Assembly: GCA_048885865.1 (NCBI GenBank)
Contig: JBHLLF010000019.1
Location: 14,299 to 40,076 of the forward strand
Length of the DNA: 25,778 bases
Source: Candidatus Hermodarchaeota archaeon
GTDB lineage: Archaea; Asgardarchaeota; Thorarchaeia; Thorarchaeales; Thorarchaeaceae
Reading direction: 5' to 3'
The notes under the pieces were generated by a model that saw only the letters and a list, made by a program, of their open reading frames with translations, was not told where the DNA came from and made no database searches. Positions 15,618 through 25,778 of the stretch are shown piece by piece. Each line of letters starts with the position of its first letter. The first letter of the stretch is position 1. The position numbers and the translations under genes are program-made.

Positions 15618-17501
15618 CTATGCAACTATTTCGAATAGTGAGGGCGAGATATATTCGCCATGTGCTTGCTTTGCTTCCAACAATCTTTCTCTTTGCTCAT
15701 TCAAAAGAGTGTATAGGATATCTGGGGCATCAGACACGCATTCGCTGTATTCTTGTTCAACTCTATCGATTTTCGCCAGCAATTCAGGGATACATATCAT
15801 GAATTGCTTCTCATATTGCTCCTCTGTGTATTCCTTTTCCAAATGCTCCTTGAAGAGCCGCTTCAAGTCTTCGAATAATGGTATGTATCCTGTGGGTGTT
15901 CTTCTCGCCTTTGCCTCTCCGTGAACCCGTAGATCCATCCATTGGAGCCAAACTCGTTTATCCGCTTTGTCAGTAATGAAGTTTCCATTATCATCTCTCT
16001 GGAAGTAGTTCACACTGAATATCTTTGGGATCTTTTCAAGTGATTCAGCAAAGACCAGATGGTTATTGATATATTTGCCCAACGGAATTGAAATGAAGTC
16101 CATGTTGGAGAATGCCTGAAACTTTCGGACTCCACTTGGACCAAGAGTTGCGGCAGTAGATTCTGACTCCAAACTGGCACCCATTGTGATTACTCCATGA
16201 GCCCAATCAAACGATTCCTGCACAGGTACCCATGTATCAGCATCCCTTCCTCCATAGATAACTGCACCAACTTCTACCCCATTTGGATCTTCGAGAGTCT
16301 TGTCGACATTGGATAGGCCCTCTAAGCCTATTGTATATCTTGCGTTCTTGTGAGCATAGGGAATATCTTCATCGTTTACATCCTTCTTCCCCTCAAACCA
16401 GTCTCCTGAGAAATTGATACCCCTCTTCGGCGGATTTCGGCCATCCTCTAGCCAATATGGAATTCCGTCATAACTTACGAGGACATTGGAGAAGATGGCT
16501 GGCTCATGCGAATTCAACACCTCCCATATCACAGGATCGCCCTTTGCACTCACAGAACGGATTATTCCAAAGATTCCCCGTTCAACATTTACTGCGGTTG
16601 CGACACCATCAATATTCTTGATATACGCTAAATCATCACCCACTATTGTGCAGCCAGGAATCATTGATGTACTTGTCTTTCCACAGCCTGATGGAAATGC
16701 ACCAGTCATGTATGTCTTCCTTCCATTTTGACCAAACACTGACATCAGAAACATATGCTCAGCTAGCCAGCCTTCTCTGTCAGCCTTTCGTATTGCCAGA
16801 CGGAGAGATAGTTTCTTCAGCCCTATGGAATTCCCGGCATACTGGGTGTTGAAGCTATACACAGTATTCTCTTTGTAGTCAATGGCAACTCCTCTGTTCT
16901 GCCAATCAATACTAACGGAATGCATCAGCTTGCCAGAACTGTGAAGCATCTGAAAGATCTCTGCATCTTCTGGTAGTCTGCGGAAGTAATCATACCCTCG
17001 CCTATATAGCAGGTCCTCACTATGTGCTACGTAAAATGAGTCGGTGATTTGAATAACTGGAATCGAGAACACTGAATCTCTTGGTCCAAGGCAGAAGAAC
17101 CGCACAACCATCTTTTTGTGTTCCATGCTCCCCGTGAGTCTATCCTGCACCATTTCGAGACCTTTCCTCCTATCCATCTGGTTAAGCTGCTCCCCCAGAG
17201 TTTCACCTTCAGGAACAAGATAGGTGGTCTGCTCTCTATCCCGCGCTTGGTCATGCAATCCGTCAAAGTGAACGGTATGCGTTGGAATTGCTAGGGGAGT
17301 CTCCTCACCCCTTGCAATAGCTGTCCTTCTGATATACTCTACATCCATCCTACTATCATCACAGATGAATACCTTCATTGGATCACATAGCTCAATAGCG
17401 TCAGCGATGAACTTGTGCACTCTCTTGTTGGGAATAGTCAGCAACTTGCGTAAATTGGCATCAGTCAGGCGCGACTCGAGGACAGTCATATAGTCATTCA
17501 C
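15618..17501 (-). CDS. pckG: Phosphoenolpyruvate carboxykinase (GTP), archaeal type
   Basis: QITDSFYV, YAGNSIGLKKL, GWLAEHM, GAFPSGCGKTS, VGDDLAY, NVERGIFG, HKNARY, IYGGRD; GAGGTG ribosome-binding site before the GTG. Confidence 0.96.
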   Translation of the reverse strand: MNDYMTVLESRLTDANLRKLLTIPNKRVHKFIADAIELCDPMKVFICDDSRMDVEYIRRTAIARGEETPLAIPTHTVHFDGLHDQARDREQTTYLVPEGETLGEQLNQMDRRKGLEMVQDRLTGSMEHKKMVVRFFCLGPRDSVFSIPVIQITDSFYVAHSEDLLYRRGYDYFRRLPEDAEIFQMLHSSGKLMHSVSIDWQNRGVAIDYKENTVYSFNTQYAGNSIGLKKLSLRLAIRKADREGWLAEHMFLMSVFGQNGRKTYMTGAFPSGCGKTSTSMIPGCTIVGDDLAYIKNIDGVATAVNVERGIFGIIRSVSAKGDPVIWEVLNSHEPAIFSNVLVSYDGIPYWLEDGRNPPKRGINFSGDWFEGKKDVNDEDIPYAHKNARYTIGLEGLSNVDKTLEDPNGVEVGAVIYGGRDADTWVPVQESFDWAHGVITMGASLESESTAATLGPSGVRKFQAFSNMDFISIPLGKYINNHLVFAESLEKIPKIFSVNYFQRDDNGNFITDKADKRVWLQWMDLRVHGEAKARRTPTGYIPLFEDLKRLFKEHLEKEYTEEQYEKQFMICIPELLAKIDRVEQEYSECVSDAPDILYTLLNEQRERLLEAKQAHGEYISPSLFEIVA

Positions 17502-17766: not shown

Positions 17767-18129
17767 CTAAAGCACCTGTTCTATAGCATCAACAGCCTTA
17801 TCCATCTCAAAGTCTATCAAGCCTATTTTCGCAGAAGTTGGGGCTGTGGCAATTAAAGAAACCTTGTCAAGTTTTCTCACTATGACCATTTTATTGCTGC
17901 CCTCTATTACGACGTTCTTAGGATTTCCCGACCTTAGTGCAGATCCGACTCGATTGCCGATCGACATCAACGCAGCTGCCATAGCTGAGATTGCCTTGTC
18001 ATCTACATCTTTATGCAGAGCCGCCACCATTAGTTGACCTCTATCAGTAACTAGGGCACTACCATCAACTTCACTATCAGCCTCAAGCTGTTTTAGGATC
18101 TCAGACAGTTCTTTAGTTTTAGCACTCAT
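17767..18129 (-). CDS. Roadblock/LC7 (MglB-like) protein
   Basis: VDGSALVTDRGQLM, AISAMAAALMSIG.RV, VVIEG, AKIGLI; GGAGG ribosome-binding site; close paralog of 24842-25204. Confidence 0.92.
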   Translation of the reverse strand: MSAKTKELSEILKQLEADSEVDGSALVTDRGQLMVAALHKDVDDKAISAMAAALMSIGNRVGSALRSGNPKNVVIEGSNKMVIVRKLDKVSLIATAPTSAKIGLIDFEMDKAVDAIEQVL

Positions 18130-18147
18130 TGTTTCTACGAGCCTCCT

Positions 18148-18708
18148 TTAGACCTCATCAGGATGCAAAACCACTGCAGCTTCTTCATTTAGGACCTTAT
18201 TGTAGAAGGCACAAGTAACACAGTTTGCGAATTTCAAAGCGAATTCTGCTTGAATTTTGCCGCCACATAAAGTGCCTGCAATTGCCCAGCAGATTCTGCC
18301 TGCATTGTGGCCATTATTCAATTTGTTGGCACTTCCATCAGTGGCAGCAGGACAAACACCTAGTTCGCCCATTTTGGGTCCACCAGGTTCCCTGCCACAC
18401 TGCATATATTCCCAGCAGTTGACTCTAGCCATAGAATCAGGGTACATGACAAAGTCGCTTTCCTCTTTAGCAACCTTGTGATAGAAATCGCATTTCACAC
18501 AATTATCCATTTTAGATGCATATTCTCCTTGCACCTCACCGCCACACAGTGTTCCTGCTACGGCCCAGCAAATTCTGCCTCCGTTGGTACCACCATTTTG
18601 TCCATTCACAGTGGTATCAGTAGATGCTAGGCATACACCAAGCTCTTCAGCCTTTGGACCACCGGGTGTTCGTCCGCAATTCATTACTTCCCAACAGTTC
18701 TTTGCCAT
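18148..18708 (-). CDS. Tandem two-CW-domain Cys-rich protein (two repeats, 7 Cys each)
   Basis: Two copies of NCWExMxCGRxPGG...GVCxA...GRICWAxAGTLCGG...NCxxCxFY. Start placed at ATG 18708 (GGAG upstream) rather than TTG 18759. Confidence 0.85.
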   Translation of the reverse strand: MAKNCWEVMNCGRTPGGPKAEELGVCLASTDTTVNGQNGGTNGGRICWAVAGTLCGGEVQGEYASKMDNCVKCDFYHKVAKEESDFVMYPDSMARVNCWEYMQCGREPGGPKMGELGVCPAATDGSANKLNNGHNAGRICWAIAGTLCGGKIQAEFALKFANCVTCAFYNKVLNEEAAVVLHPDEV

Positions 18709-18811
18709 TTCTGCATGGCTCCATTGATGAGTTATTTTGTCCTTGACAAGCCCCGTCAAAGAGGCTAAATTGTCCGTTCAACTAACTCATTATTACTTTT
18801 ATTTGTTTTGG

Positions 18812-18823
18812 TTATATATTAAA
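18812..18823 (-). promoter_or_regulatory. Candidate TATA box for the two-CW/roadblock gene pair
   Basis: TTTAATATATAA on the minus strand in the AT-rich gap downstream of the 424-aa gene. Confidence 0.4.
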
Positions 18824-18835
18824 TATTCAAATATT

Positions 18836-20110
18836 CTAACCCAAATAGCGTATTTGCTTACTCTGAGTTTGCTTAGCTGTCACTCTTGCTCTAAACAAAG
18901 CCGCATTTGCCTTTGTCTTGCCAACTCGGGCAGTGATCTCAGCCGTTACTTGATTGATGAGGTATTGCAGCGCATCAAACATGGCTTCAAAATCGAATTG
19001 AGTCATTGTCGAATCAATTCTACATTGCACCAAACCGTCAGTCTTCAGATCAATTCTCGAAAGCCATGGATGAATACGCAAACCTTCCCTTTTCCTCCTT
19101 AGAAGCTCCATGACTGAGAATGAATCTGGAACTAATACTCGGCTTTCAATCAAATAGCGATTTACAATACGTTCTTGATCAATTACAAGCTGATGGCCTG
19201 GAGTAACACCTTGGATGTAGCCCATTCGGATTAAACGGCCAAGTTCTGCAAATATTCTCTGTTTCAAATTGTCGTTAAATTGACCAACCAATTCATAGAC
19301 ACTGCATCGCCCATCAAGGGACCCAATCACTTCAAGTGTCATAGGTGAGATTTCAAAGCTATCCACATTTGAGAAAACTACACCAATCGACCTCTCAGAT
19401 GGGATCAAAATGTCATCATCAGAAGGAATGTGATCTATGTGGATTACTCCATCCCAACTCGCGATATACGCCATCTCCTTAACATCTCGAAATGGTCTAC
19501 GCATAGCATCAGATATGCGCGCGAGGCATTTTCCATCTTCAATTGCTGACAGAAATTGACTCATCTCACTCAATCCGTTAGTGCCCTCTAGATCCGCCAA
19601 AATACGAGCCCAACCTGGAATTGCCCTTATAAAAGAGGTTGAAGATATTCTGTCATCAGAAAAGATTCTCATTGCAAAATCATCAAACCCATCAAGAATG
19701 CTCCTATCATATCCGAAAGATTCTTTGAGCGCTCCGTATGTAGCTTCAAACTCAGAAAGGATAATACGTAGTTGAGTTCGGAGTCCGCTAGTTTCTCTGC
19801 AAACAGCCAGTACGGCAACAGCCCATTCTCCAGATTCAACAATAAGAGTTGTATCAGTTCCATAGATGGTTTTCCATTGAGACCTCTCAAATCCCACGAA
19901 CTCTGAAAGAAAACTAGCCATCGCACCAACAAATCCTGCAAGAAGTTGGGGATCGATTGCATTTGGAATGAAATAATGGGAGTACATCGACACTCCAGAA
20001 CCTTTGTGCAAGATGAAAAGTGCCTTTTCGTTTAGCTGGCGATTGGGATCCGTGTCTAAAGAGCTTCCGTGTCTTTGCAATGCATCATCTTGATTGATGT
20101 CAGATTTCAT
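18836..20110 (-). CDS. Longin-like domain protein with tandem winged-helix-like regions
   Basis: N-terminal ALFILHKGSGVSMYSHYF...IDPQLLAGFVGAMASFLSE...LSEFEATY fits the longin beta-beta-alpha-beta-beta-beta-alpha pattern. Later IEDGKCLARIS...WDGVI and LDGRCSVYELV...LGRLIRMGYI fit wHTH patterns. Confidence 0.7.
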   Translation of the reverse strand: MKSDINQDDALQRHGSSLDTDPNRQLNEKALFILHKGSGVSMYSHYFIPNAIDPQLLAGFVGAMASFLSEFVGFERSQWKTIYGTDTTLIVESGEWAVAVLAVCRETSGLRTQLRIILSEFEATYGALKESFGYDRSILDGFDDFAMRIFSDDRISSTSFIRAIPGWARILADLEGTNGLSEMSQFLSAIEDGKCLARISDAMRRPFRDVKEMAYIASWDGVIHIDHIPSDDDILIPSERSIGVVFSNVDSFEISPMTLEVIGSLDGRCSVYELVGQFNDNLKQRIFAELGRLIRMGYIQGVTPGHQLVIDQERIVNRYLIESRVLVPDSFSVMELLRRKREGLRIHPWLSRIDLKTDGLVQCRIDSTMTQFDFEAMFDALQYLINQVTAEITARVGKTKANAALFRARVTAKQTQSKQIRYLG

Positions 20111-20124
20111 TCAATGGCTTCTCC

Positions 20125-20700
20125 TTAGTGTTCTTCAGTTGAATCCAGAAGATTCTGATCAAGCTCGCCACCAACACCTTCATAGCTACCCTCATGTTCT
20201 CCTGTGAGAGTACTATTTCCTTTTTCCTCGGCGAATTTCAAATAGTCAGCAAGAAATTGCTTTGCTTCAGATATTGCCTTTGTACGAACTATCTTCTCTT
20301 CAGTTGAAATCTTTAATCTTGAATTTGCCTGCTTCATCTCGTTGTATATTCGATCAATCTCTTTCAGATGCTTCCTAAATGAGTGGGAGAGAAAGGAATT
20401 TAGACCCATTCGCATTGAAAAGAGTATTTTTCTGCGACCCCTTCCTGTGCTTCCAAAATGTGATTGTCGGTCTAAGACTCCCAAGGATTCCAGTATCGTA
20501 CAAAGAGATGATACAGTTGTCACTGAAAGGCCAGTCAACTCGCTTATGGCTTTCATAGATAAAGGAACTTCGTTATTACATCTTTGCTTGTAAAGAGCAG
20601 CCAAGACACTAGAAGCTGTTGATGGAATATTTAGCAATTCTACTCCTAGTCTCATTAGTTGCTCGATATGATGATTTCCATTCTCAATTGATTTGGTCAA
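20125..20700 (-). CDS. Winged-helix protein, GbsR/MarR-like transcriptional regulator
   Basis: SVLAALY...PLSMKAISELTGLSVTTVSSLCTILESLGVL...GRGRRKILF followed by a helical tail. Start placed at TTG 20700 (TTGA overlap with the kinase stop, GGAGG upstream). Confidence 0.8.
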   Translation of the reverse strand: MTKSIENGNHHIEQLMRLGVELLNIPSTASSVLAALYKQRCNNEVPLSMKAISELTGLSVTTVSSLCTILESLGVLDRQSHFGSTGRGRRKILFSMRMGLNSFLSHSFRKHLKEIDRIYNEMKQANSRLKISTEEKIVRTKAISEAKQFLADYLKFAEEKGNSTLTGEHEGSYEGVGGELDQNLLDSTEEH

Positions 20701-22934
20701 TAGTATGATCCTCCTGGCTTTGGCAGCCAAATCACGAAATTTGCACCCTCCTCGAAATTCCCAGGCACACGGTCCCTAATGCGAATTGATCCACCGTATT
20801 TTTGAACTATTTCGAATGAGAAGTGCAGTCCAACTCCACCTAATCTTTGAAATGGATCAAATAGATACTGCTTGAGATTATCTGCTATTCCGGGGCCATT
20901 ATCTGCCACTGAAATCTCAAATCCATCAGAGGTATCGTGCAATGATATCCAAACTCTTCGGCAAGCTGACTTATTGTGTTCAACAGCATTCTGGATAATA
21001 TTGCTGAATAGATCCTCCAAGAATTTGTCAGCTAATACAACATCGCTATTGCACGAATTCTTAACAGTAATTTCCACATCTTCATAAGTTTCAAGTTGAA
21101 CGTCAATACATTGGGATATGACTCTAGACAAAGATCTATCCACCAGAGGCGCAATTGCTAGCTTCTCGGTAGCACGCGCACTCATAATCATCCTGTTACA
21201 TCTTTGGACTGAATCAATGATTTGATCAAGAAAACGCTCAGAGGGAATACAGTCTATTTCCTTTTGATTAATTTCTTTAAGAAGTTCAACGCTTCCTTGG
21301 ATCACTTGAAGCTCGTTTGCCATGTCATGACCTAAGAGGTCCAAATAGAGGCGAGCCCTTCTTGTTTCCAAAGCTAGCTGCTTTTCGGCCAACTTCTGGT
21401 CTGTCACATCAAGGGCATACTCAATCATTTGAACAACTTCTCCATTTGCATCAAAGACTGGATATGCGTGTACCTCAACATATCGAATATCACCATTCAA
21501 GTCATAATGACAATGTTCAACGACAGTAGGTTGCTTGGACTTCTTGATGATATCCAGGGGACAAGGATGATCTTCTCCCGAGCAAGGTAGATCCCTCTTG
21601 TGTGACATCTTGTAGCATTTCGTCAATGAATCAGGATGACCCAAATTAGCAGCTTGATTAGCCATCTTTATTGCATAATCATTCGCATCAATGACATAGA
21701 AAGGATGTGTCATTGATTCAATGACACGTTCAAGAAAATCTCGCTGCTCAAGAAGACGTGCTTCGGCCATCTTTCCTTGCGTTATATCCCTCACAACCGC
21801 TACAATACTCTGCCCGTCTTCATGGAGAGTCAAAGTCTTTGAATACCATCGAATTGTATCCCCGAAAGGAAGAGGATACTCAATGGTGACCGGAGAACCA
21901 TCTCTTCTAACCTCTACAGATGCCATCAAGTATTTGGTAGCCGCTTCAATAGGGAGGATGTCATTGACATGCTTTCCAATGAATTCCTTTGGTGACTTGT
22001 AGAAGATATTCTCACTTGAAGCATAGTATTCAGAATATCTATTCTGCGAATCATAAACAAAGACAAGGTCATGCATCGACTCCATAATGGTGCGATGCCT
22101 CCGCTCACTGCGTCTGAGTTCTTCATCAGCTTGCTTCCTTAGTGTAATATCTATGAATGCTGCTATCATTCTTCTTGGAGAAGTTTGAATAGCATGGACT
22201 TCAAATGCGCCAGAGATATCACCAGCATCATATTCGATTTGCTCTGTACTCCATGTAGTCCCAAATAGTGCGACTTCCAAGTATCTTTGAGGAACTTCAG
22301 TTTCTGTAAGAGCTGGGAATGCGTCTTGGATGCTTTTCCCAATGAATTGGCTATTATCTATGCCAAGAATCTGATCAGCCGCTGGATTAGCCCCTAGAAA
22401 AATGAGATTGTCATCTTCTGTAGCTTCATACATATGAATGCCAATTTTAGAACTTATGTCGCTATTATTGATGGCACTTACAGAGTCATCATATTCGTCG
22501 GGGCTTCCCCAAACTTCAATAACATATGCAATCCTTCCTCGAGAATCAGGGATGGGAATTCCCCTTATTTGATGCCTACACGAGCCACCTCCTTTTGGAG
22601 TGTGAGCATGTTGAAAAGCCATGGATTTCCTATTCCTTAGAACTTGGTTAACAACTGGGGAGGAATCTTTTGGTGACCGATGACCATCTAGGCCATGCGC
22701 GGAGAGATAACAGCAAGGATTAGCTGTGACTATTTCCTTTTCTGCCAATGCATTCATTGAAATAATTGTGAAGTCAGTAACATCTACCACAAAAGCTGGT
22801 CTGTCTATCAATTCTAGGAGCGCACTTAGAATAATCTGAGAACTTGAGCTTCCTAACTCAAACCTATCGTGGAATAATAAATCAGTCTTTGCACAACTGG
22901 TTTTTGATTTGCTGCTTTCTTCGTTAGAACCCAT
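20697..22934 (-). CDS. Soluble multi-PAS sensor histidine kinase
   Basis: H-box LLGHDMANELQ, N-box NIIQNAVEH, G1 DNGPGI, F LFDPF, G2 GGVGL; four PAS/PAC-like repeats (three end in DIT/DVT); no transmembrane segment or receiver domain seen. Confidence 0.93.
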   Translation of the reverse strand: MGSNEESSKSKTSCAKTDLLFHDRFELGSSSSQIILSALLELIDRPAFVVDVTDFTIISMNALAEKEIVTANPCCYLSAHGLDGHRSPKDSSPVVNQVLRNRKSMAFQHAHTPKGGGSCRHQIRGIPIPDSRGRIAYVIEVWGSPDEYDDSVSAINNSDISSKIGIHMYEATEDDNLIFLGANPAADQILGIDNSQFIGKSIQDAFPALTETEVPQRYLEVALFGTTWSTEQIEYDAGDISGAFEVHAIQTSPRRMIAAFIDITLRKQADEELRRSERRHRTIMESMHDLVFVYDSQNRYSEYYASSENIFYKSPKEFIGKHVNDILPIEAATKYLMASVEVRRDGSPVTIEYPLPFGDTIRWYSKTLTLHEDGQSIVAVVRDITQGKMAEARLLEQRDFLERVIESMTHPFYVIDANDYAIKMANQAANLGHPDSLTKCYKMSHKRDLPCSGEDHPCPLDIIKKSKQPTVVEHCHYDLNGDIRYVEVHAYPVFDANGEVVQMIEYALDVTDQKLAEKQLALETRRARLYLDLLGHDMANELQVIQGSVELLKEINQKEIDCIPSERFLDQIIDSVQRCNRMIMSARATEKLAIAPLVDRSLSRVISQCIDVQLETYEDVEITVKNSCNSDVVLADKFLEDLFSNIIQNAVEHNKSACRRVWISLHDTSDGFEISVADNGPGIADNLKQYLFDPFQRLGGVGLHFSFEIVQKYGGSIRIRDRVPGNFEEGANFVIWLPKPGGSYY

Positions 22935-23004
22935 TTCCCAGTTCCTCCCTTAAGCCTAGCTTCCCAGTTTGCCATCTTAGTATGGACTCCCGCTTCAGCA
23001 AATA

Positions 23005-23421
23005 CTATTCCTCTAATACAGAGCGAATTTGATTTGCAATAGCTACAAGTTCGGTTTCAGCGCCGATATGTCTCCACCGACCAAATAGTCCCCTTTTGAG
23101 AATAGTATCCCCTTCAAGAACTCCGCCAATGCGAAACCATTGGTCTTTTACTTTGAATTCATGCAGAGATACTGTCACTCCGAAACCTCTGACTGATGCT
23201 GTCTTAGGATGCCCGTATCCTAGATTATCACTGACTCTAACAGCTGTATCTGAAAGAAGAGACACCATTGCAGCAAGTGTTTGATTTGATGATCCATCAG
23301 ATGACTTCCCAGCAACTACCAAGCCTCGTTCGTTGGTTACTACACAGCTCATGAAGCTGCGACCATTATCAATAAGCTCTCCAACAATATCTTGTAGTCT
23401 TTGATGTTTGCCTGTACTCAT
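23005..23421 (-). CDS. Roadblock/LC7 protein (divergent)
   Basis: SCVVTNERGLVVA...LAAMVSLL...RVSDNLG.G; GGAGG ribosome-binding site. Confidence 0.82.
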   Translation of the reverse strand: MSTGKHQRLQDIVGELIDNGRSFMSCVVTNERGLVVAGKSSDGSSNQTLAAMVSLLSDTAVRVSDNLGYGHPKTASVRGFGVTVSLHEFKVKDQWFRIGGVLEGDTILKRGLFGRWRHIGAETELVAIANQIRSVLEE

Positions 23422-23442
23422 TTTTGTTCCTCCGCGTTTTCT

Positions 23443-24108
23443 TCAGGTCACTGTGTCTTCATGGAGCTTCACATCCCAGAGTCCAACAATTTCATTGATT
23501 GCTTTGGCGAGATTCTCAACTTCGAATGTCAAAAGTCCAAGTTGAACGCTACTTGGAAAAATGACAGTCAACATAACATTCTCAGCAACATGTTTCAACA
23601 AGACTGAGAATTGAACATGACCGTTCTCATCATCAGCATCAACCAGAACTTGTCTAAACATGCAAGAAGCATTCACAAGACGGATAAAATCTTCTGAGAT
23701 TGTTATTAGGCCTGCAGACATACTACTGACCACCATCTCAATATTCTCTGGCATAGAATCGTAGAAGAGTCTATGAGCAAGAATATAGCCGTCCACTGTA
23801 AATACAGTCAACCCCCATACTGGAACCTTCATCTCAAACTCTGATAGAAGATCCCGAATCTGGACTACTGGAGGAATAGCATTGTCATCATCAGTAATTT
23901 CTATGTCTCCTGATTGAATCTCCACTTGAGATGATTCTTCAAGGAGGAGTTCCCCATCAATTTCGTTAGACACAGATTCTTCGGGAGCTGAGGTGACTGG
24001 GTCTTCTACATCATCATGTTGATTACGCTCATCTAATATTGAACCATCTTCATCAAGATGCTCCTCCATTTCACCAGGTTCTTCTATTCCAATTCGTTCA
24101 TAATTCAT
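23443..24108 (-). CDS. Roadblock-like protein with an acidic, probably disordered N-terminal extension
   Basis: Residues 1-80 are about one third Asp/Glu; then GLTVFTVDGYILA...VSSMSAGL...RQVLVD...VQLGLLTFEV. Confidence 0.8.
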   Translation of the reverse strand: MNYERIGIEEPGEMEEHLDEDGSILDERNQHDDVEDPVTSAPEESVSNEIDGELLLEESSQVEIQSGDIEITDDDNAIPPVVQIRDLLSEFEMKVPVWGLTVFTVDGYILAHRLFYDSMPENIEMVVSSMSAGLITISEDFIRLVNASCMFRQVLVDADDENGHVQFSVLLKHVAENVMLTVIFPSSVQLGLLTFEVENLAKAINEIVGLWDVKLHEDTVT

Positions 24109-24118
24109 CTCTTACACC

Positions 24119-24781
24119 TCATGATTGTGAAACTACGCTTAATGTGTCACTAGCTACCTCATTTTGAACACAGATTTCCTCTACCTTCTTCAGAAGGAGA
24201 ATCAAGCCAGTCTTTGATGATTCACGATTATTGGCAGATGTACCCACTGCATCAGGAACACCCACCCAGCTTGCTACTTCATCAGGTGAAACAGCATCCG
24301 GCCGGTCTTGCTTGTTTGCGATGGTCACAATAGGAGTTGGCCCAAATGCGGCCTTAGTTTCCGCCAGGATTGCACAAGCGTCTCCTATCATAGCAGGATC
24401 TGAAGAGTCAACAATCATCAGGACTCCATCAGAGTTAGACCTCATTGTGTCTCTGACAAACTTGAAATGTAGTTGACCAGGGACACCACGCAGTTCTATT
24501 TCCTTTGAAATCCATCCCTCATATTCGGAGATTTCTTCCTCATATTCTGCTTTAGGGACAATTAGACCCATATGGGCCAATTCCTTTCGGACCCAAATAA
24601 CACGCCCAAGATCAAAACCTGTTGTCGTGGTGCTTTTCTCACCACGATATTCCTCCTTCATCTCACGCTCTATAGATATAGTGTTGGGATCGAGTGTATG
24701 AATTAGAGTGGTTTTTCCAGCTTGGAAAGGTCCGGTGACATAGATTTTGAAATCATATGATTTTAAATTCCTCGCAGACAT
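24119..24781 (-). CDS. Small GTPase of the MglA/CvnD type
   Basis: G1 GPFQAGKTT, G2 TTTTGFDLG, G3 GVPGQ (no Asp of DxxG, as in MglA/CvnD), G4 NKQD, G5 TSA. Start placed at ATG 24781 (AGGAG upstream); the ORF track start is 24841. Confidence 0.9.
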   Translation of the reverse strand: MSARNLKSYDFKIYVTGPFQAGKTTLIHTLDPNTISIEREMKEEYRGEKSTTTTGFDLGRVIWVRKELAHMGLIVPKAEYEEEISEYEGWISKEIELRGVPGQLHFKFVRDTMRSNSDGVLMIVDSSDPAMIGDACAILAETKAAFGPTPIVTIANKQDRPDAVSPDEVASWVGVPDAVGTSANNRESSKTGLILLLKKVEEICVQNEVASDTLSVVSQS

Positions 24782-24841
24782 CTCATCATAACTCCTTGAT
24801 TCTCCTCTTCCAAGGACTCCATGCAATTTGCATTGAGTCAT

Positions 24842-25204
24842 CTAGAGGATGGACTCTACCTCACTTGTGGCTTTATCCATCTCGAAGTCGATTAAACCGA
24901 TCTTGGCGTCCCGAGGAGCTGTGGCGATAAGCGCAGCACCATTAAGGCTTCGCACAATCACGGTTTTCACATCGCCTTCAATCACGATGTTCTTCGGATT
25001 TCCAGAATCTAGGGCAGATCCAACACGACTTCCTATTGACACCAATGCGGCTGCCATAGCTGATACCGCTTTTTCATCGACTTCCTTGTGTAGCGCAGCA
25101 GCCATGAGCTGGCCCCTATCGCTTACCAGGGCACATCCGTCGACTTCGCTATCAGCCTCTAGTTTCTTGAGTGTGTCTTCAAGTTTCTTTATTTTTGCAC
25201 TCAT
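24842..25204 (-). CDS. Roadblock/LC7 (MglB-like) protein
   Basis: Roadblock motifs; directly upstream of the GTPase, as in mglBA/cvnB-D. Start ATG 25204 has GAGGTGA upstream and matches the paralog's MSAK start. Confidence 0.92.
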   Translation of the reverse strand: MSAKIKKLEDTLKKLEADSEVDGCALVSDRGQLMAAALHKEVDEKAVSAMAAALVSIGSRVGSALDSGNPKNIVIEGDVKTVIVRSLNGAALIATAPRDAKIGLIDFEMDKATSEVESIL

Positions 25205-25215
25205 TTGCATCACCT

Positions 25216-25341
25216 CTATTTCTTTTCGTAGAACTCACACGAGTCCTTCTCTTTCGCTGATACGTAGATGTTCTTCTTTTCACACCAAACTAGCCCTTGT
25301 GCGTTTGCGCCTCCTGCGTACTTACAGTCAGATATAGCCAC
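25216..25341 (-). CDS. Putative 41-aa Cys-containing microprotein MAISDCKYAGGANAQGLVWCEKKNIYVSAKEKDSCEFYEKK
   Basis: Found by manual translation (shorter than anything in the ORF track). Fills the gap between two genes; GGGGTGA 5 nt before the GTG; CKY...WC...CEFY spacing. An alternative in-frame GTG is at 25350. Confidence 0.72.
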   Translation of the reverse strand: MAISDCKYAGGANAQGLVWCEKKNIYVSAKEKDSCEFYEKK

Positions 25342-25346
25342 AGGAA

Positions 25347-25778
25347 TCACCCCAAGGATAAAGTGAAATCACTGGCATTCAGCTCAGGATGGAAAACGCA
25401 CTTGGTTACTGTGCAATGCTTGCCAGTCTTCTCATTCAGTGCCGCGTAGAGAATTGCCATCATTGGACAGGGGGGAATCATGTTTGCATCCCCACCGCGG
25501 ATTATTGTCGTAGCGGGAGCAAAGATACATTCGCCAATATCCATGACTACCTCGTCATCAGATACGCTCACAATATTACATCTCTGCACGGCGCCAGATT
25601 TCTTGATTTCAGATGCAAAAGATTCCACAACAGATCTTACATCATTGCCTTCGATACTCAGCCCGAGCTGACTTAACAAGTCCTTTGCATCACCTTGGAA
25701 TGCATTTGCCATCTGAGTCCAGATGAGCGGAATATCAAGGCCCATGTTCACCATTGCTTCTGCAACTGCAACCATTAC
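25347..25778 (-). CDS. V4R/MetOD1/Bet3-like fold protein, probably 5'-truncated by the window edge
   Basis: VVMDIGECIF...PPCPMMAILYAAL...VTKC...DFTL matches the V4R-type Cys pattern; the frame is open to the end of the window. Confidence 0.65.
   Translation of the reverse strand, partial: VMVAVAEAMVNMGLDIPLIWTQMANAFQGDAKDLLSQLGLSIEGNDVRSVVESFASEIKKSGAVQRCNIVSVSDDEVVMDIGECIFAPATTIIRGGDANMIPPCPMMAILYAALNEKTGKHCTVTKCVFHPELNASDFTLSLG

Follow-up and report, generated by a model that had tools for sequence, protein, structure and literature searches.

We describe a cluster of 11 genes in a 25,778-nucleotide (nt) stretch of the genome of Candidatus Hermodarchaeota archaeon (contig JBHLLF010000019.1; G000:C19:14299-40076 in our numbering, within an assembly of 3.6 Mb), and refer to this whole stretch as the window. 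On balance, we lean towards reading the cluster as a modular cytoplasmic G-protein signalling locus, in which an MglA switch controlled by roadblock proteins is combined with an exchangeable head and an optional branch containing a kinase and an NPRL2-like protein. The 11 open reading frames (ORFs), g01 to g11, all lie on the minus strand between positions 17767 and 25778 (Table 1), and the arrangement, whose gene order is repeated across many genomes, goes far beyond chance. All named matches to proteins of the window are from Candidatus Thorarchaeota. An earlier note on this DNA, made from its letters alone, had proposed a signalling cluster with this set of co-oriented genes; all 11 are present where it had placed them, and its parts list and fold calls were upheld by Pfam and NCBIfam matches, profile comparisons, and AlphaFold2 (AF2) models searched with Foldseek. 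Judged by hydropathy the products look soluble, with no 19-residue Kyte-Doolittle (KD) window above 1.7 in any of them, which is consistent with the cytoplasmic setting that had been suggested.

The GTPase-roadblock core and its exchangeable head

The GTPase of the cluster, g04, carries the G1-G5 motifs of a small GTPase (GPFQAGKTT, TTTTGFDLG, GVPGQ, NKQD and SA, respectively), together with a conserved insertion of ~40 amino acids between G2 and G3. It is a single-domain GTPase with no roadblock domain, and translation probably starts at M21 (window position 24781), as in most orthologues. The G3 motif lacks the Asp of DxxGQ, with G99, P101, G102 and Q103 invariant in 34 orthologues, among which the G4 motif NKQD is invariant as well, and the G2 region (KSTTTTGFDLG, with T52 and T53 invariant) has a Thr in place of the intrinsic Arg of group 1. 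MglA proteins of groups 2-5 have a G(T)PGQ G3 motif without the Asp, a Thr beside the G2 threonine, and one or two coupled MglB genes (PMC4316618). Three roadblock genes flank g04, with an Asp-Gly pair (VDG) in g03 and g05, where g06 has ERG. Because the G3 motif is Asp-less, Thr replaces the intrinsic Arg and MglB genes are coupled, we place g04, going by its motifs and neighbours, with MglA groups 2-5 in their archaeal branch, as a GTPase of the MglA/CvnD kind. A profile search of PDB chains returned an Arf-like GTP-binding chain (8oun, E = 6e-16) and MglA (E = 1.7e-10); assignment of g04 to Rag or Arf was rejected, as its G2 and G3 motifs are of MglA type and Arf-type chains are the best matches only over the G3-G5 half. 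The closest relatives are archaeal, from Asgard and then from methanogen contigs. Separately, a paralogous group of GTPases (~53-59% identity) without roadblock neighbours was observed at L021, L064, L066, L069, L116, L117, L120 and L124, always followed by an ORF of 456-498 amino acids and a convergent ORF of ~570-575 amino acids, which looks like a different conserved trio.

The four roadblocks that had been claimed for the cluster, g03, g05, g06 and g11, are all supported, g06 weakly by Pfam: its Robl_LC7 match (Table 1) and a LAMTOR5 match (E = 0.017) both fall under the cut-off, while BLAST aligns it with g03 (E = 5e-5). For g05, which has no Pfam or NCBIfam family match, the C-terminal 148 residues are conserved, and a profile of 10 orthologues matched the Robl_LC7-domain chain 7f8m (E = 9e-9) and MglB (E = 2e-3). 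Its 73-residue N-terminus holds 26 Asp/Glu against 2 Lys/Arg, and the length of this acidic tail ranges from 0 to ~180 amino acids in orthologues. Since the three roadblock types, A, B and C, show a mutual identity of only 22-27%, we regard them as distinct subunits. The remaining protein, g11, shares 73% identity with g03 and 78% with roadblock A of a cassette headed by a two-CW protein in L017.

A census of the g04 subfamily recovered 39 copies from 25 of the 86 genomes of this Thorarchaeota family (12 of the 23 that are of high quality; 10 of 16 genera), together with outgroups, and ORFs in the fetched loci were labelled with profiles built from the window proteins. Roadblock genes flank the GTPase in 34 loci, a count that includes our own genome and two outgroup genomes, and in nearly all of these core loci the order roadblock A, GTPase, roadblock B, roadblock C is kept. 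The g03-type gene lies immediately 5′ of the GTPase gene in most of them, the position of the g06-type gene after roadblock B is fixed, and some loci contain a fourth roadblock, of the A type. The head, 5′ of roadblock A, is exchangeable, being g01 plus g02 in 16 loci of the family, a Pfam V4R/XylR_N protein in nine loci (for example L020, PF02830, E = 7e-10) and a two-CW protein in L017 and L055. At the other end, the gene directly after roadblock C encodes a PAS kinase in 11 loci, which come from several genera, an NPRL2-like gene follows the core in approximately six of the 34 (our own genome, L016, L029, L030, L032 and, partly, L014), and g08-type winged-helix genes flank many cores, kinase-less ones included (L018, L059 and L060). 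The full g01-g09 order recurs in G020 (L016), G165 (L029) and G158 (L032), and in G015 (L014) as far as the contig reaches. The earlier note had made its proposal depend on synteny in related genomes, and the cluster is indeed syntenic in relatives. Literature searches on MglA/MglB operons of Asgard archaea turned up no paper that describes this cluster.

By lineage, the core is present on Hermodarchaeota contigs, and the core with the g01/g02 head occurs on Helarchaeota contigs and, in a rearranged, divergent layout, in Promethearchaeota. Baldrarchaeota have GTPase, roadblock and g01-type genes together and Atabeyarchaeia the GTPase with roadblocks; relatives in Methanosarcinales, Methanoperedens and Thermoplasmatota (27-31% identity) have the GTPase with a single roadblock only. 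At the Promethearchaeota (Loki-type) loci L123, L126, L127, L130 and L132 the module falls into two units of divergent orientation: the TRAPPC3-fold gene, a Cys microprotein, roadblock A and roadblock B make up one of them, while the GTPase, roadblock B and another Cys microprotein form its counterpart. A contig labelled as a bacterium, Candidatus Komeilibacteria (L128, JAUVAE010000024.1), shares with Promethearchaeota L129 both its identity to the query and its layout (upstream a divergent pair of roadblocks, followed by the GTPase, a roadblock, a gene of 300 amino acids and a PAS gene), and is probably a mis-binned Asgard contig.

Of the head proteins, g01 had been called V4R-like, and this call holds at the level of fold though no Pfam V4R sequence match supports it. 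The protein is 155 amino acids long at full length in relatives and belongs to a family of 31 clusters, with two invariant Cys, in which all named matches are from Thorarchaeota. Its AF2 model (predicted local distance difference test, pLDDT, of 81) gave a Foldseek probability of 1.0, with template-modelling (TM) scores of 0.62 to TRAPPC3 (6aq3, 7u05 and 1wc8), 0.57 to the V4R domain of PoxR and 0.55 to Thor TRAPPC3 (7yh3), and with H-NOX also among the matches; as modelled, g01 has the two-layer alpha/beta Bet3/V4R/H-NOX fold. In sequence searches g01 gave no Pfam V4R (PF02830) match at E up to 0.1 and no Pfam or NCBIfam match of any family, and a PDB profile search with five orthologues found no solved chain under E 0.9, only chance-level matches. 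Its companion g02, which almost always adjoins a g01-type gene and likewise has no Pfam or NCBIfam match, is conserved in >20 loci as a ~38-residue motif, SDCKYAG..GQ(I/V)WC.KK.(I/V)YV...C, and we take it to be a real gene because these orthologues keep the motif with its three invariant Cys. An additional, diverged Cys microprotein copy was seen 5′ of the TRAPPC3-fold gene, bracketing it, at L014:1729-1854, L016:1868-2110, L029:2075-2191, L043:3457-3573 and L053:7126-7278; the readable part of the window has only the downstream copy.

The two-CW protein of the window, g10, contains two copies of the NF045718 domain (E = 3.8e-60; 200.2 bits against a cut-off of 35) and probably starts at the ATG at 18708. 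Two-CW genes are rare (9 of the 201 genomes of the phylum), and one stands directly 5′ of a roadblock gene in five loci, one of them in another family; a literature search on 'two-CW domain' turned up no paper. Before g10 comes a gap of 76 nt that is rich in AT and resembles a promoter. Because g11 is closer to the L017 roadblock A than to g03, we regard g10 and g11 as the front of a second cassette, probably a separate unit made of a head and a first gene with a promoter of its own.

Kinase, winged-helix and NPRL2-like genes

The kinase g07 combines PAS repeats with the domains listed in Table 1, has an H-box reading LGHDMANEL and a C-terminus reading LPKPGGSYY, and shows no HAMP match and no hydrophobic 19-mer above KD 1.6. 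The winged-helix protein g08 belongs to a family whose best matches are MarR_2, HTH_IclR and TrmB; g08 itself matches MarR_2 with E = 1.6e-4, orthologues scoring 34.7 and 28.4 bits exceed the Pfam cut-off, and no DUF742 (PF05331) match was found for g08 (E up to 0.1) or for six relatives (E up to 1). The earlier note had described a system without a receiver, and within the window there is none, but the locus itself is not receiver-less because a divergent neighbour opens with a receiver (REC) domain. The product of this neighbouring gene, a REC-PAS-kinase of 1980 amino acids, has an N-terminal receiver, a long PAS series and a C-terminal HATPase_c domain. The assembly contains only six receiver matches, of which this one begins ~630 bp past the window end, and a promoter-sized gap separates the REC-PAS-kinase gene from an extra g08-type ORF (Table 1). 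REC-PAS-kinase neighbours recur in four other loci (L019, L032, L055 and L058).

The AF2 model of g09 (pLDDT 68) comprises a longin/roadblock-type N-domain, two winged-helix-like domains and a helical C-domain. The top 13 Foldseek matches were GATOR1/SEAC chains (NPRL2, NPRL3, Npr2 and Npr3; E from 1.5e-6 to 1.4e-3), NPRL2/3 chains also came top in VIA-align (Z 9.0-10.6, with 147-234 residues aligned), and the N-domain, modelled at pLDDT 29-60, aligned with the Sec22b longin domain (Z 7.6) and MglB (Z 7.0). In the model, the domain order of an N-terminal longin followed by winged-helix-like domains matches that of NPRL2/NPRL3; no Pfam or NCBIfam match was found for g09. Longin-domain GTPase-activating proteins (GAPs) carry a GP motif in the beta1-beta2 loop and an arginine finger (PMC12290439). 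In the beta1-beta2 loop of g09, H-K-x-S-G, only the Gly is invariant and there is no Gly-Pro pair, and no arginine finger can be placed, the only nearly invariant arginine being R115, inside the last helix. A complex prediction for g09 (30-row alignment) with the GTPase (34 rows) scored 0.19 against a mark of 0.32 and counts neither way.

A profile of g09 found full-length matches in all 43 of the 43 family genomes sampled, usually at several places in each, and the idea that g09 is an invention specific to the cluster was rejected on this ground. Beyond the family the profile matched mostly the N-domain alone, often in open frames of ~700-800 residues. No GTPase gene is close to the two other NPRL2-like copies of our own genome, on contigs C24 and C51, or to most of those elsewhere, and at L033, L036, L041 and L042 the immediate neighbours of the paralogues are a stand-alone receiver and a kinase. 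The presence of the NPRL2-like family in Thorarchaeota and its two-component link are already published, Liu et al. having reported the family in most Thor metagenome-assembled genomes and the longin domain fused to two-component domains (bioRxiv 10.1101/2020.10.19.343400).

Between g01 and g09 the genes are spaced by -34 to 70 nt and GGAGG-like sites are present, and the 70-nt gap, between g06 and g07, is without an AT-rich element. A run of ~100 N stands exactly at the window end (L013:6078-6176; G000:C19 ~40077-40175) and costs g01 its first 13 codons and the upstream g08-type ORF its 3′ end. On the other flank, a gene for GTP-dependent phosphoenolpyruvate (PEP) carboxykinase lies on the same strand 265 nt downstream of g11; it shows no sign of belonging to the cluster, and its adjacency is not kept in relatives.

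Table 1. Genes of the cluster and its flanks. Plain positions refer to the window; L013 is the own-genome locus that extends past the window end.
Feature	Position	Strand	Basis or remark
g01, TRAPPC3/Bet3-V4R-fold protein (as modelled)	25347..25778	-	AF2 model and Foldseek; truncated by window end/N-run
g02, Cys microprotein, ~38-44 aa	25216..25350	-	Conserved motif; 4-nt overlap with g01 stop
g03, roadblock A (MglB-like)	24842..25213	-	Pfam Robl_LC7, 5e-11
g04, MglA-type small GTPase	24119..24841	-	G1-G5 motifs; PDB profile matches
g05, roadblock B, variable acidic N-terminal tail	23443..24108	-	Orthologue profile against 7f8m
g06, roadblock C, basic C-terminal insertion	23005..23421	-	Robl_LC7, 3e-3; BLAST to g03
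g07, soluble multi-PAS histidine kinase	20697..22934	-	PAS_4, 3e-29; HATPase_c, 3e-19; weak HisKA
g08, MarR-type winged-helix protein, C-terminal half helical	20125..20730	-	MarR_2; ORF as called overlaps g07
g09, NPRL2/NPRL3-like protein	18836..20110	-	AF2 model; Foldseek and VIA-align
g10, tandem two-CW domain protein, 14 Cys	18148..18759	-	NCBIfam NF045718
g11, second A-type roadblock	17767..18129	-	Pfam Robl_LC7, 1e-8
Extra g08-type winged-helix ORF beyond window	L013:6034-6495	-	Between g01 and REC-PAS-kinase gene
REC-PAS-kinase gene	L013:6680-12622 (G000:C19:40679-46621)	+	Divergent from cluster
GTP-dependent PEP carboxykinase gene	15618-17501	-	

Proposed working and the alternative of independent systems

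From the gene content, folds, motifs, synteny and modularity of the locus we infer the physical contacts, direction of signalling and output as follows. Module A, g01-g06, is the conserved unit, with one MglA-type GTPase and three divergent MglB-like roadblocks that, by analogy with MglB dimers, may form a heteromeric platform setting the nucleotide state of the GTPase. The head (g01 with g02, a V4R protein or a two-CW protein) would act as a ligand, metal or redox sensor that feeds the switch. Genes g07-g09 constitute module B, which comes after module A in a subset of genomes. Because the NPRL2-like family is otherwise found beside kinase-receiver pairs, g09 might serve as an adaptor or output partner of a phosphorelay branch, for which the divergent REC-PAS-kinase is a candidate partner of g07, and the winged-helix proteins could provide a transcriptional output.

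Several observations speak against such an integrated locus. The core is without a kinase in 23 of the 34 loci (approximately two-thirds) and without an NPRL2-like gene in approximately five-sixths, and because most core loci lack these genes the coupling of modules A and B may be incidental. The heads could be merely co-transcribed, independent regulators, the g04 family is patchy, occurring in 2 of 16 other genomes of the same genus, and the N-terminal longin-like domain of g09 was modelled with low confidence. Some of these points feed the alternative that two or three independent systems lie side by side without cross-talk, namely an MglA/MglB switch (g01-g06), a two-component system (g07-g09 with the REC-PAS-kinase) and the g10-g11 pair. 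Each module stands alone in most genomes, NPRL2-like paralogues (C24 and C51 of our own genome; L031-L042) have no GTPase nearby, and the gap before g10 would suit a promoter. Against a mere juxtaposition, the kinase takes the same place directly after roadblock C in several genera, the g01-g09 order is kept in at least four other genomes, g06 and g07 are separated by just 70 nt with no AT-rich element, and g08-type genes flank cores that have no kinase. Independent neighbouring systems seem to us rather unlikely, though they are the alternative that survives best.

Comparison with known systems

GATOR1 NPRL2/3 targets a Rag-family GTPase that carries a C-terminal roadblock domain, Ragulator is made of five roadblock-fold subunits (LAMTOR1-5) that scaffold Rag GTPases bearing roadblock domains, and TRAPP is built from Bet3-fold and longin-fold subunits. 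The earlier note had seen Rag/Ragulator/GATOR-like parts in the cluster, and as far as folds are concerned the match stands: g09 has the longin-type N-domain and winged-helix-like domains of GATOR1 NPRL2/NPRL3, whose chains top both of its structure searches, TRAPPC3 heads the structure list of g01, and in several Asgard classes the GTPase-roadblock core has a TRAPPC3-fold gene linked to it. The locus might then be a forerunner of the eukaryotic longin/Bet3 regulators, with g09 as the GAP and g01 plus the roadblocks as GEF (guanine nucleotide exchange factor) or scaffold, the more so as TRAPP itself combines the Bet3 and longin folds. This ancestry we consider improbable. The GTPase is of MglA type, not Rag, Rab or Arf, and has no roadblock domain; neither a Rag GTPase nor DEPDC5 is present in the locus; its roadblock genes number 3-4, with LAMTOR5 and MAPKK1_Int matches under cut-off; and the K-x-S-G loop of g09 lacks the Gly-Pro pair, with no arginine finger to be placed. 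An NPRL2-like gene occurs in only approximately six of the 34 core loci, and its family tracks receivers, with paralogues beside kinase-receiver pairs, not GTPases. The V4R, H-NOX and Bet3 folds, moreover, are mainly small-molecule binders in prokaryotes (PMC10933270). The GATOR, Ragulator and TRAPP readings remain analogies at the level of fold.

With Thor TRAPPC3 (7yh3 and 7yh2; PMC10933270) and the V4R sensors PoxR and DmpR, g01 shares the predicted two-layer alpha/beta fold, and its conserved Cys might hold a metal in the manner of the Thor TRAPPC3 Zn site; unlike them, it has no sequence-level match, is paired with a Cys microprotein and lies in a GTPase operon. The Thor NPRL2-like proteins of Liu et al. 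(bioRxiv 10.1101/2020.10.19.343400) have the same two-component association, whereas the present copy stands behind a kinase and a winged-helix gene, downstream of an MglA-type switch. A bolder and, in our estimate, improbable extension is that across Asgard the TRAPPC3-fold protein, Cys microprotein and three roadblocks form one complex that loads or unloads the MglA GTPase in response to a ligand or redox state, with the PAS kinase and NPRL2-like protein tuning the switch in Thor genomes. If true, prokaryotes would have a living arrangement that follows the same Bet3-plus-longin logic as eukaryotic TRAPP, Ragulator and GATOR. Two facts temper a reading centred on eukaryotes: g04 is a GTPase of the MglA kind, which is prokaryotic, and the NPRL2-like family goes with two-component signalling, not with Rag-type GTPases.

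In conservons, CvnA is a membrane kinase that has HAMP and carries an LPxR motif at its C-terminus, and CvnC is a DUF742 protein. The conservon GTPase (CvnD, MglA group 2) has NxFD as its G4 motif (PMC4316618). The suggestion that the cluster is conservon-like stands insofar as kinase, roadblocks, winged-helix protein and MglA-family GTPase are linked, as in CvnA-D and mycobacterial Mfp, but the NxFD, DUF742 and LPxR features all fail. That the locus is a true orthologue, an archaeal CvnA-D/Mfp member by descent or horizontal transfer, is very improbable: although it has the same four kinds of part, including a GTPase with an Asp-less G3, and no stand-alone response regulator gene inside the operon, its G4 is NKQD, its winged-helix proteins are MarR-like with no DUF742 match in the seven members scanned (six of them at E up to 1), its kinase is a soluble PAS type without HAMP and with the tail LPKP instead of LPxR, its nearest GTPase relatives are archaeal, and it has three roadblocks instead of one. 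A receiver in the divergent neighbour gene and the extra TRAPPC3-fold, Cys and NPRL2-like parts set it further apart, and the locus is conservon-like in logic only.

Asgard genomes encode dozens of small GTPases, roadblock, longin and TRAPPC3-like proteins. It has been hard to tell which regulator belongs to which GTPase because the genes usually lie scattered, as Tran et al. make explicit for MK-D1, in which GTPase genes generally share no operons with roadblock, longin or TRAPPC3 genes (PMC10933270). The present locus and its relatives in several Asgard classes amount to a short, fixed list of candidate partners for one GTPase, comprising three distinct roadblocks, an exchangeable sensor-like head and, in some genomes, a kinase, a regulator and an NPRL2-like protein, and a defined reconstitution is possible with that list. 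Its nearest counterparts are the MglA/MglB systems of groups 2-5, above all the archaeal group 4 and the systems with MglA and MglB at 1:2 (PMC4316618), with which it shares the GxPGQ G3 motif, the Thr at G2, adjacent roadblocks and, in two of these, the Asp-Gly pair. It differs from them in having 3-4 divergent roadblocks per GTPase and the ~40-aa insertion between G2 and G3, and from group 4, for which no conserved neighbours were reported (PMC4316618), in its TRAPPC3-fold, Cys microprotein, kinase and winged-helix genes. We class the locus as a variant among systems of the MglA/MglB kind, laid out in a conservon-like way.

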